Assembly (NCBI GenBank): GCA_945876185.1
Contig: CAMCMZ010000011.1
Location: forward strand, 3,275 to 67,274
Reading direction: 5' to 3'
Length of the DNA stretch: 64,000 nucleotides
From: Candidatus Kuenenia stuttgartensis
GTDB lineage: Bacteria > Planctomycetota > UBA11346
In this document: one piece after another, positions 29,668 to 31,117 of the stretch
Layout: each line of letters starts with the position of its first letter
Position numbering within the stretch: position 1 is the first letter of the stretch
The notes under the pieces: generated by a model
Seen by the model: only the letters and a program-made list of their open reading frames with translations
What the model was told of the DNA's origin: nothing
Database searches by the model: none
Translations under genes and position numbers: made by a program

Positions 29668-30135
29668 ATGTCCACGATCGCCGATCTGATCTCCGCCGCC
29701 GTAACCGAGGCTGGCTTGAGCCAGGCCAAGGCCGCTGAAACCATCGGAGTCAGCACGATTTCGCTGAGCAACCTGCTCTCGAAGGGTTCGCTGCCCAATC
29801 AGCGGACGCTCGCCAAGTACGCCGCGTTCCTCAAGCTCACGCCGGAACAGCTCACTGATCTCATCATCAACGCCAAGGGCGCCTCGGAAGGCAAGCCGCG
29901 CGGCAAAACCTCAGCCAAAGCAACCCCCAAGGCAGGCAAGCCGGCCAAGGCGAAAGCCAAGGCCCCCGGCAAGGGTCGCAGCAAGGTCGGAGCCTCCGCC
30001 GTCGCCGATGCCTTCGCGATCATCACCGGCGCGCTGGAAGAAGCACTGACCGTCATCAATGATGACGTGGCGATCGCGGTGCACCTTGGCGACCGGGCGA
30101 CCCGCAACCAGGTCGCGGATCTCGTCGGACTCTGA
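29668..30135 (+). CDS. XRE-type helix-turn-helix protein with a Lys/Ala/Pro-rich histone-H1-like linker
   Basis: The HTH is LSQAKAAETIGVSTISLSNLLSKG, followed by the basic tract GKPRGKTSAKATPKAGKPAKAKAKAPGKGRSK. ATG 29668 is chosen as start. Confidence 0.65.
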   Translation: MSTIADLISAAVTEAGLSQAKAAETIGVSTISLSNLLSKGSLPNQRTLAKYAAFLKLTPEQLTDLIINAKGASEGKPRGKTSAKATPKAGKPAKAKAKAPGKGRSKVGASAVADAFAIITGALEEALTVINDDVAIAVHLGDRATRNQVADLVGL

Positions 30136-30172
30136 TTTTCAAACGCGGTAGTTTACCCGCAGGCGATCCGCC

Positions 30173-31117
30173 ATGATCGAAGCGCAACGCCGGCTGTTGG
30201 CGGATTCCGTGCGCAACCAGGCCTTCGCCGACGCCATCGCGGCGGTGGTGCGGCCGGGCATGCGCGTCGCGGACCTCGGCGCCGGCACCGGTTTCCTGTC
30301 GCTGCTTGCCGCCCGGCAGGGCGCACGGGTCACCGCCTATGAACAGCACCCCGGACTGGCCGGACTGGCGCGGGACATTATCCACGCCAACCGCGGCAAC
30401 CGCGCGGCCAGCCCGAAGAACGCGATCCGCCTTGTCACTTCCTTCAGCCATGCCGTAGCGGATCCCGAACCAGCCGATGTGGTGATCGCGGAAGTGCTGG
30501 GGAATTACTGCCTGGAAGAACACCTCATTGAGACGATGGGCGATGGTAGACGCTTCCTGCGCAGGGGTGGCGTGATGATGCCGTCCGCCGTGCGCATGTT
30601 CGTCTGCCCGGTGGTCGGTGCGCGGGTCCAGGAATCGGTCGACACCTGGCAGGTCGGTTTTGGCCTCGACTTTTCCACCGCACGCCGGGTCGGCCTCAAC
30701 AATCTCTACGTGCGCACGGTGCCGGCGAGCGATCTTCTGGGCGGTGGTGCGGCTGCGCAAAGTTACGATTCAGCCACTTTTCCAGGTGACGAATCCAGCC
30801 GTCGCACCGGTTCGGTGGATTTTGCGCTGGCTTCCGCCACCACCATCCACGGCCTCACCTGCTGGTGGGAAGCCGACCTGGCCCCTGGCATCACCCTCTC
30901 GACCAGCCCGCTGGCCCCGCACACGCATTGGGAGCAGATCTACCTACCGCTGCTTAAACCCGTGGTCGCGAAACGCGGTGACACCGTCGTCGTCACGATA
31001 GCTAGCGACACGCGATTGGATGCCGGCTGCGTCCTGACGTGGGAGACCTGCCATCGCCGGGGAGGCAAGGTGCTGGAGCGGCAGAAGCTGGATAATTTGG
31101 CTGGTTTTTTGGGCTAG
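30173..31117 (+). CDS. Protein arginine N-methyltransferase (PRMT)-like class I SAM methyltransferase
   Basis: Motif I is VADLGAGTGFLS and post-I is VTAYE. The double-E-loop-like segment is VIAEVLGNYCLEEHL, motif III is LRRGGVMMP, and the THW loop is PHTHWEQIYLPL. Confidence 0.75.
   Translation: MIEAQRRLLADSVRNQAFADAIAAVVRPGMRVADLGAGTGFLSLLAARQGARVTAYEQHPGLAGLARDIIHANRGNRAASPKNAIRLVTSFSHAVADPEPADVVIAEVLGNYCLEEHLIETMGDGRRFLRRGGVMMPSAVRMFVCPVVGARVQESVDTWQVGFGLDFSTARRVGLNNLYVRTVPASDLLGGGAAAQSYDSATFPGDESSRRTGSVDFALASATTIHGLTCWWEADLAPGITLSTSPLAPHTHWEQIYLPLLKPVVAKRGDTVVVTIASDTRLDAGCVLTWETCHRRGGKVLERQKLDNLAGFLG

Follow-up and report, generated by a model that had tools for sequence, protein, structure and literature searches.

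Eukaryotic type I protein arginine methyltransferases (PRMTs), such as PRMT1, PRMT6, CARM1, and PRMT2, have bacterial homologues, which Aravind, Abhiman and Iyer reported from in silico work in 2011; as summarized in PMC3417536, sister groups of bacterial PRMT-like proteins are placed in peptide secondary-metabolite operons or within giant synthetases. Predicted PRMTs are also said to be encoded in Legionella (PMC10117894). The analysis described here concerns two adjacent genes in a 64,000-nucleotide stretch of contig CAMCMZ010000011.1 from Candidatus Kuenenia stuttgartensis (Planctomycetota)—the whole stretch being referred to below as the window—namely a gene for a PRMT-fold methyltransferase dependent on S-adenosylmethionine (SAM) and, upstream of it, a gene for a small XRE-type helix-turn-helix (HTH) protein. 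An earlier note on this DNA had proposed that the two products form a writer/substrate pair. The explanation favored here, and considered the probable one, is that a stand-alone PRMT-family enzyme lies beside an XRE regulator, with the adjacency being specific to one lineage and the HTH protein not being a dedicated substrate.

The closest described system in concept is the chlamydial cpnSET/Hc1 pair, in which a bacterial methyltransferase has as its target a Lys/Ala-rich protein that binds DNA in the same cell (PMC10117894). The two cases differ in several respects: cpnSET is a SET-domain enzyme that has been shown biochemically to methylate lysine, whereas any such relationship in the window is hypothetical, and Hc1 is a histone H1-like protein, whereas in the HTH protein, an XRE regulator, the basic region serves as an internal linker. 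The two genes and the spacer between them are as follows:

29668-30135, + strand: gene for the XRE-type HTH protein (155 aa; stop codon TGA), comprising an HTH domain, a basic linker, and a helical C-terminal domain
30136-30172, + strand: intergenic spacer of exactly 37 nt, with an in-frame TAG at 30149-30151
30173-31117, + strand: gene for the PRMT-fold SAM-dependent methyltransferase (314 aa; start codon ATG), comprising a Rossmann domain and a C-terminal beta-barrel with a dimerization arm

Both open reading frames (ORFs), their common strand, and the 37-nt gap between them (measured at 30136-30172) were found as the earlier note had described them. Because the TAG codon lies in frame 24 nt upstream of the methyltransferase ATG, the N-terminus of the enzyme is fixed and an N-terminal extension is impossible.

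Assignment of the methyltransferase to the PRMT family

That the methyltransferase is a PRMT-family protein is well supported by its sequence, by the conservation of catalytic residues, and by its predicted fold. The Pfam model PRMT_C, which describes the arginine methyltransferase oligomerization/barrel subdomain, matched residues 141-277 with 48.7 bits against a cut-off of 27, and the generic Pfam methyltransferase models scored below their own cut-offs. In a sequence search of solved structures, counted at E <= 0.01, all 68 distinct chains were PRMTs (PRMT6, PRMT2, PRMT1, PRMT8, CARM1, PRMT3, PRMT7, and PRMT5), with the best match reaching an E-value of 3e-20 over residues 5-277. A model of the enzyme built by AlphaFold2 on an alignment of 17 bacterial homologues (predicted local distance difference test score, pLDDT, 90.5; predicted template modeling score, pTM, 0.88) comprises a Rossmann domain and then a beta-barrel, into which two helices (150-156 and 168-175) are inserted at the position of the PRMT dimerization arm. 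When this model was compared with the Protein Data Bank (PDB) using Foldseek, each of the top 50 matches was a PRMT, including PRMT6, PRMT1, and CARM1, with template modeling (TM) scores of 0.76-0.83 over about 320-330 alignment columns. The PRMT-like identity proposed in the earlier note is therefore borne out by both profile and fold comparison, with PRMT_C above threshold and structure matches exclusively to PRMTs.

The motifs on which that proposal had been based are likewise all present in the translation and, in an alignment made with HMMER, pair with their counterparts in PRMT6; thus VADLGAGTGFLS of the methyltransferase is aligned with VLDVGAGTGILS of PRMT6, and AEVLGNYCLEEHL with SEWMGYGLLHESM. 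The SAM-binding motif I reads VADLGAGTG (residues 32-40) where PRMT6 has VLDVGAGTG, the double-E loop reads AEVLGNYCLEE where PRMT6 has SEWMGYGLLHE, with E107 and E116 nine residues apart, and motif III reads LRRGGVMMP where PRMT6 has LKEGGLLLP. The THW loop (T251-H252-W253-E-Q) corresponds to THWKQ in both PRMT6 and PRMT1. The post-I acidic residue E57 aligns with a glutamate of PRMT6 and with E100 of PRMT1; the PRMT1 counterparts of E107 and E116 are E144 and E153, and those of D11 and R14 are D51 and R54. Across the 17 bacterial homologues, which come from several phyla and are 43-85% identical to the query, D11, R14, D34, G36, and G38-T39-G40 are invariant, as are E107, E115, E116, and T251-H252-W253-E254-Q255.

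More detailed comparison with the eukaryotic type I enzymes showed the same two-domain fold and matching motif I, post-I acid, double-E spacing, THW loop, and dimerization-arm helices. In contrast, sequence identity is just 20-26%, extra targeting domains are absent, and the host is a bacterium without histones. Furthermore, the N-terminus of the methyltransferase corresponds to about residue 41 of PRMT1, leaving the YFxxY N-terminal helix of type I PRMTs without a counterpart; no YFxxY was found in family members with longer N-termini either, where it was looked for in the 17-homologue alignment. In PRMT1, residues M48 and M155 are tied to asymmetric dimethylation, whereas in the alignment to PRMT1 these positions are leucines (L8 and L118) in the bacterial enzyme. 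The protein has a complete type-I-like PRMT core—motif I, the post-I acid, the double-E glutamates, which hold the guanidinium group of the substrate, the THW loop, and the barrel with its dimerization arm—and would most likely act as a dimer, methylating arginine side chains with SAM as the donor. Its substrate or substrates would be one or more proteins or peptides not encoded next door.

Other named methyltransferase families were considered and rejected, with all of them scoring under their curated cut-offs and the best NCBIfam match being CpaM (38.7 against 180). The ribosomal protein L11 methyltransferase PrmA deserves separate mention, because it shares the class I Rossmann SAM-binding domain and also acts on protein. 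Unlike the enzyme in the window, PrmA is without the PRMT beta-barrel, the double-E loop, and the THW loop, and it modifies lysines and the N-terminal amine rather than arginine. The Pfam PrmA model gave 21.1 bits against a cut-off of 22 and covered the Rossmann part alone (residues 21-113), and the NCBIfam models TIGR00406 and PRK00517 gave 16.3 against 183.15 and 23.4 against 269, respectively.

A widespread bacterial family and its possible substrates

The enzyme has at least 662 homologues, of which the best 120—setting aside the protein itself and an 84% identical sibling—are about 297-355 aa long, cover at least 92% of the query, and are 43-52% identical to it. The family consists of stand-alone single-domain proteins of about 310 aa, and its loci are found in Planctomycetota, Candidatus Peribacteria/Peregrinibacteria, Hyphomicrobiaceae, Nevskiaceae/Solimonas, and other Proteobacteria, with Hyphomicrobium zavarzinii ATCC 27496 and Solimonas variicoloris DSM 15731 among the cultivable carriers (loci L017 and L007, respectively). 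The labels given to these proteins by the sources differ, namely "protein arginine N-methyltransferase 1" (Joint Genome Institute, JGI), "class I SAM-dependent methyltransferase", and, for some relatives in NCBI, "50S ribosomal protein L11 methyltransferase". Both the JGI-labeled proteins and the bacterial homologues of the type described by Aravind and colleagues have the PRMT catalytic domain in common with the enzyme in the window. A literature search found no paper characterizing a bacterial PRMT-fold arginine methyltransferase biochemically or naming its substrate. The methyltransferase is, in sum, one more member of a large, widespread bacterial PRMT family that has already been noted yet is uncharacterized.

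The gene neighborhoods of the family are varied. When the three genes on each side were clustered in 30 loci, no conserved operon partner was recovered, and nothing was common beyond clade-level synteny. In five Hyphomicrobiaceae-type loci (L003 at 2841-3725, L027, and three more), the PRMT orthologue is immediately preceded by a gene for a SpoU/TrmH-like RNA methyltransferase (a family assignment made by eye), with the two genes on the same strand and 5-7 nt apart in L003 and L027; this neighbor could be a hint of a translation-related substrate, or it could reflect plain clade synteny. Orthologue P0018 is preceded, at 22 nt and on the same strand, by a gene for a flavin adenine dinucleotide (FAD)-dependent oxidoreductase with a Rieske domain (L074, 4486-5979), an arrangement that recalls the amine-oxidase link of bacterial PRMT-like genes (PMC3417536). 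The Planctomycetota orthologues P0024 and P0012 (L076/L078) have a divergently oriented single-domain response regulator upstream.

These neighborhoods bear on an alternative in which the enzyme acts on a different class of substrate, such as a peptide natural product, a small guanidino compound, or a ribosomal component (e.g., L11, as in the case of PrmA). The FAD/Rieske oxidoreductase and the SpoU/TrmH-like genes just described can be read in its favor, as can the naming of some relatives as PrmA by the sources and the location of bacterial sister groups in peptide secondary-metabolite operons, as reported in the summary in PMC3417536. However, no nonribosomal peptide synthetase (NRPS)-type or other biosynthetic-cluster neighbors were found at the window, at the sibling locus, or at the inspected orthologue loci, and a secondary-metabolite context of the kind described for the bacterial PRMTs of Aravind and colleagues was rejected for that reason. 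In contrast to those groups, which occur in peptide operons and giant synthetases, the present family is a stand-alone gene with variable, housekeeping-type neighbors. The sub-threshold PrmA scores, confined in Pfam to the Rossmann part, also argue against a PrmA-like role, and the PRMT-specific barrel, double-E loop, and THW loop are all kept. This alternative is therefore regarded as unlikely.

Domain organization of the HTH protein and its basic linker

The HTH protein was predicted to consist of three parts:

29668-29886, + strand: XRE DNA-binding domain (residues 1-73), with five helices within residues 4-73 (pLDDT 87-97)
29890-29985, + strand: Lys/Ala/Pro/Gly-rich basic tract (residues 75-106), a predicted disordered internal linker
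29992-30126, + strand: conserved C-terminal three-helix domain (residues 109-153), with helices at 109-130, 133-140, and 143-153 (pLDDT 72-87)

The N-terminal domain matched the Pfam model HTH_3 with 33.5 bits against a cut-off of 23 (E-value 4.4e-8). The AlphaFold2 model of the whole protein has an overall pLDDT of 77, falling below 50 over about residues 79-108 (79-85 and 89-108). In a Foldseek search, the N-terminal domain alone was aligned, with its 60-75 residues superposing on the XRE repressors DdrO, lambda cI, P22 c2, HigA, and SinR and on restriction-modification controller proteins (C-proteins), although these matches are weak, with E-values of 5e-3 or worse. The protein differs from these repressors in the addition of the Lys/Ala-rich linker and the conserved three-helix domain. 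Neither of these two parts has a match in Pfam or, in the whole-model Foldseek search, among solved structures. The idea that the protein is nucleoid-associated, which the earlier note had entertained, does not sit well with a domain that resembles those of sequence-specific XRE repressors rather than a generic nucleoid protein.

A single-sequence search returned four relatives of the HTH protein, and a profile search about 57 proteins that are 135-169 aa long and share its three-part layout. In 41 family members, D132 and R146 of the C-terminal domain are invariant and H139 is nearly so; this domain may mediate oligomerization. The family, defined by an XRE domain, a basic or AT-hook linker, and a three-helix C-terminal domain, appears to be undescribed. 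Two of its loci have a mobile-element-like context: DNA cytosine methylases are encoded upstream in one (L085, 495-2871), and the neighbors in the other (L087, 986-2694) are an uncharacterized ORF of 217 aa and a helicase-like ORF, assigned by eye. Part of the family may thus travel on mobile DNA.

The basic tract GKPRGKTSAKATPKAGKPAKAKAKAPGKGRSK (residues 75-106) contains 10 lysines, 7 alanines, 4 prolines, 5 glycines, and 2 arginines. It had been described as a histone-H1-like basic tail; the Lys/Ala/Pro-rich composition agrees with this description, whereas the position does not, since in the predicted structure the disordered stretch sits between two folded domains and the tract is consequently an internal 32-aa linker, not a tail. 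In H1-like basic proteins of bacteria (Hc1, the C-terminal tail of HupB, and the AlgP type), such a repeat region makes up a terminal tail or most of the protein. With respect to potential methylation sites, the tract holds one RG dipeptide (R78, in PRG) and one GR dipeptide (R104), without any RGG. In the only other genome in which the two genes are paired, R78 is replaced by glutamine and R104, with its preceding glycine, is kept. Across the 57 family linkers, which are variable in length and sequence and dominated by lysine (means of 10.8 lysines and 2.5 arginines), 6 lack arginine, 22 lack any RG or GR, and none has an RGG. The suggestion that the RG/GR dipeptides mark a PRMT substrate is weakened by these comparisons, with 2 arginines standing against 10 lysines, R78 lost in the sibling, and RG/GR dispensable across the family.

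The linkers of the relatives point in another direction. Seven of them (P0166, P0167, P0173, and P0175-P0178) carry GRP cores of AT-hooks in the linker, mostly as RGRP, with eight in P0176. The R-G-R-P core is absent from the HTH protein in the window, which contains PRGK and GRSK and no GRP. The combination of lysine-dominated, variable linkers with RGRP AT-hooks in relatives points to a role for the linker in contacting DNA that is independent of any PRMT. The HTH protein is most likely a DNA-binding regulator, to whose binding the linker would add non-specific or minor-groove contacts.

Conservation of the gene pair

The adjacency of the two genes is specific to one lineage. Both genes were found together in just one other place, a sibling genome in which the enzyme is 84% and the HTH protein 68% identical, the gene order is the same for at least 12 kb, and the spacer is again 37 nt; being fully syntenic, this locus is not an independent observation of the pair. 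Neither 37 orthologous genome loci nor 3 further orthologue contexts, in which the enzymes are 46-51% identical and the neighbors are others, contain the pair, and tblastn with the HTH protein or either of its domains gave no match in 69 genome loci. The possibility that a non-homologous Lys-rich partner takes the place of the HTH protein at other PRMT loci was also rejected, with no Lys-rich ORF of any kind being found near the enzyme in the scanned loci except in the window and the sibling. From the side of the HTH family, no PRMT was found within 3-6 kb on each side in 7 independent loci (P0123, P0124, P0125, P0128, P0153, P0164, and L087), to which a metagenome scan for HTH-family loci contributed one confirmed locus among the matches listed.

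These observations bear most directly on the proposal that the PRMT-like enzyme methylates one or more arginines in the linker of a co-transcribed HTH protein, tuning its DNA binding and creating a chromatin-like mark. The genes lie on the same strand, 37 nt apart, and a scan of the + strand of the spacer found no terminator-like site; the sibling shows the same arrangement and spacing and retains R104 in its G-R context. Many PRMT substrates are disordered and basic, and the linker resembles them in both respects. There is also a bacterial precedent for a methyltransferase acting on a histone-like protein, namely the cpnSET/Hc1 system introduced above. Against this, the pair is missing at about 40 other loci of the PRMT family, where there is no Lys-rich neighbor, and at the 7 other loci of the HTH family, and the sole further occurrence is syntenic; the arginine content of the tract, and its variation in the sibling and among the 57 family members, tell the same way. 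Because the pair is not conserved, an outcome that the earlier note had itself named as refuting its proposal, comparative genomics gives no support for an enzyme-and-target system, and the dedicated writer/substrate pair of the earlier note is judged very improbable. A narrower version, in which the enzyme was recruited in this lineage to methylate R104, and perhaps R78, in the linker of the XRE protein, weakening or retuning its DNA contacts, is just as improbable.

Upstream leader, palindrome, and a possible transcriptional link

The region directly upstream of the HTH gene contains two features of possible regulatory relevance:

29555-29667, + strand: conserved leader upstream of the HTH gene, mostly identical to that of the sibling (RNA fold z = -2.5)
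29636-29653, + strand: perfect palindrome GCGGAC-N6-GTCCGC, 15 nt before the HTH ATG, a candidate operator or 5′ untranslated region hairpin

Conservation with the sibling extends over about 110 nt ahead of the HTH start; farther upstream the sequences are unrelated, and the window has about 330 nt extra there. Given this conservation, the leader is unlikely to be a neutral spacer. It folds better than shuffled sequence (z = -2.5), and the palindrome is a candidate for the kind of site that an XRE dimer would bind. Since the spacer is short and without a terminator, the two genes are probably co-transcribed here.

A link of a transcriptional rather than an enzymatic kind can therefore be envisaged, in which the HTH protein is a local XRE repressor of its own promoter and, through it, of the methyltransferase gene. 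Its fold is like that of autoregulating XRE repressors and restriction-modification controller proteins, the leader of about 110 nt with its perfect palindrome is kept in the sibling whereas the region beyond it is not, and no terminator separates the genes. However, the palindrome occurs once in the window, which is the number of matches that chance would give in 64 kb; conservation judged from two genomes is weak evidence; no promoter was predicted; and the other members of the HTH family lie in unrelated contexts with different downstream genes. As an explanation of the locus in its own right, regulation of the methyltransferase gene by the HTH protein is a tentative proposal, less favored than the lineage-specific adjacency and clearly better placed than the substrate-based alternatives. 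An autoregulated HTH gene with a passenger gene downstream is nevertheless the more economical functional reading of the adjacency, and within the preferred explanation—a stand-alone enzyme beside an XRE regulator—the HTH protein would possibly autoregulate via the conserved leader and palindrome.

Several points weigh against the preferred explanation. Arginine as the methyl acceptor is deduced from the conservation of catalytic residues, and a non-ribosomal or small peptide substrate is possible for the enzyme, since peptide natural-product pathways are where the sister enzymes reported by Aravind and colleagues operate (PMC3417536). The pair is kept at identical 37-nt spacing, together with R104 and its GR context, in the sole available relative, and a lineage-specific gene pair can be functional. 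The sample on the HTH side is small, at 7 independent loci, and the chance expectation for the palindrome applies equally to autoregulation within this explanation.

Genomic surroundings

Neither gene of the pair looks recently imported, as the guanine-plus-cytosine (GC) content at third codon positions (GC3), at 0.80 in the HTH gene and 0.77 in the methyltransferase gene, is similar to the 0.76-0.85 of the flanking genes (excepting a low-GC pseudopilin-like gene), and recent horizontal acquisition of the pair was rejected on this ground. The upstream region had been described as about 430 nt of non-coding, lower-GC DNA. Its lower GC content is confirmed (0.587 for 29237-29667, compared with 0.659 for the window), whereas its left boundary is uncertain: a minus-strand ORF at 28664-29383 may extend to 29383, similarity to its homologue begins near 29272, and the start of this gene, which ends at 28664, could lie anywhere from 29188 to about 29272. 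An Rfam scan of the window gave no matches. The N_methyl/DUF1559 and DUF4388/PatA_N genes, together with the Planctomycetota affiliation of the nearest homologues, suggest a PVC-group origin for the window.

Directly downstream of the methyltransferase gene, on the minus strand at 31160-32137, is the pseudopilin-like gene, which has a prepilin N_methyl motif and a weak match to DUF1559; its GC content is 0.48 and its GC3 is 0.46, compared with a genome GC content of 0.66. A second low-GC island (0.51) is located at positions 2001-3000 of the window.

An intergenic repeat of about 100-110 nt is also dispersed over the window. Its copies are 86-96% identical, and each is a hairpin whose 25-27-nt arms are separated by about 50 nt. 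The repeat looks like an element of the repetitive extragenic palindromic (REP) or miniature inverted-repeat transposable element (MITE) kind. Its copies are located as follows:

44-154, - strand: repeat copy
13735-13845, + strand: repeat copy
13926-13966: partial repeat copy
14789-14889, + strand: repeat copy
28544-28654, + strand: repeat copy
31985-32079, - strand: repeat copy
60685-60785, + strand: repeat copy

Two of these copies flank a 3.3-kb segment with the gene pair, and the sibling genome has the left copy alone. The flanking inverted repeats of about 100 nt could be taken for the ends of a mobile element carrying the pair, but this interpretation was rejected, given that at least six occurrences of the element are scattered over the window.

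Implications

Whether bacteria regulate their chromatin proteins by modification has been described as still an open question (PMC10117894), and a functional pair at this locus would bear on it. Such a pair would provide the first bacterial example of a PRMT-type writer with a DNA-binding substrate, its arginine-methyl mark being placed by a homologue of the eukaryotic enzymes that methylate histone arginines, although the comparative evidence speaks against a functional link of this kind. The value of the methyltransferase is, however, wider than the present locus, as it stands for a large bacterial family that retains every PRMT catalytic residue. What this widespread family methylates is the interesting question, and it is one that belongs to the family rather than to the locus. 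Since cultivable carriers exist, the origin and ancestral role of arginine methylation are directly testable in this family.

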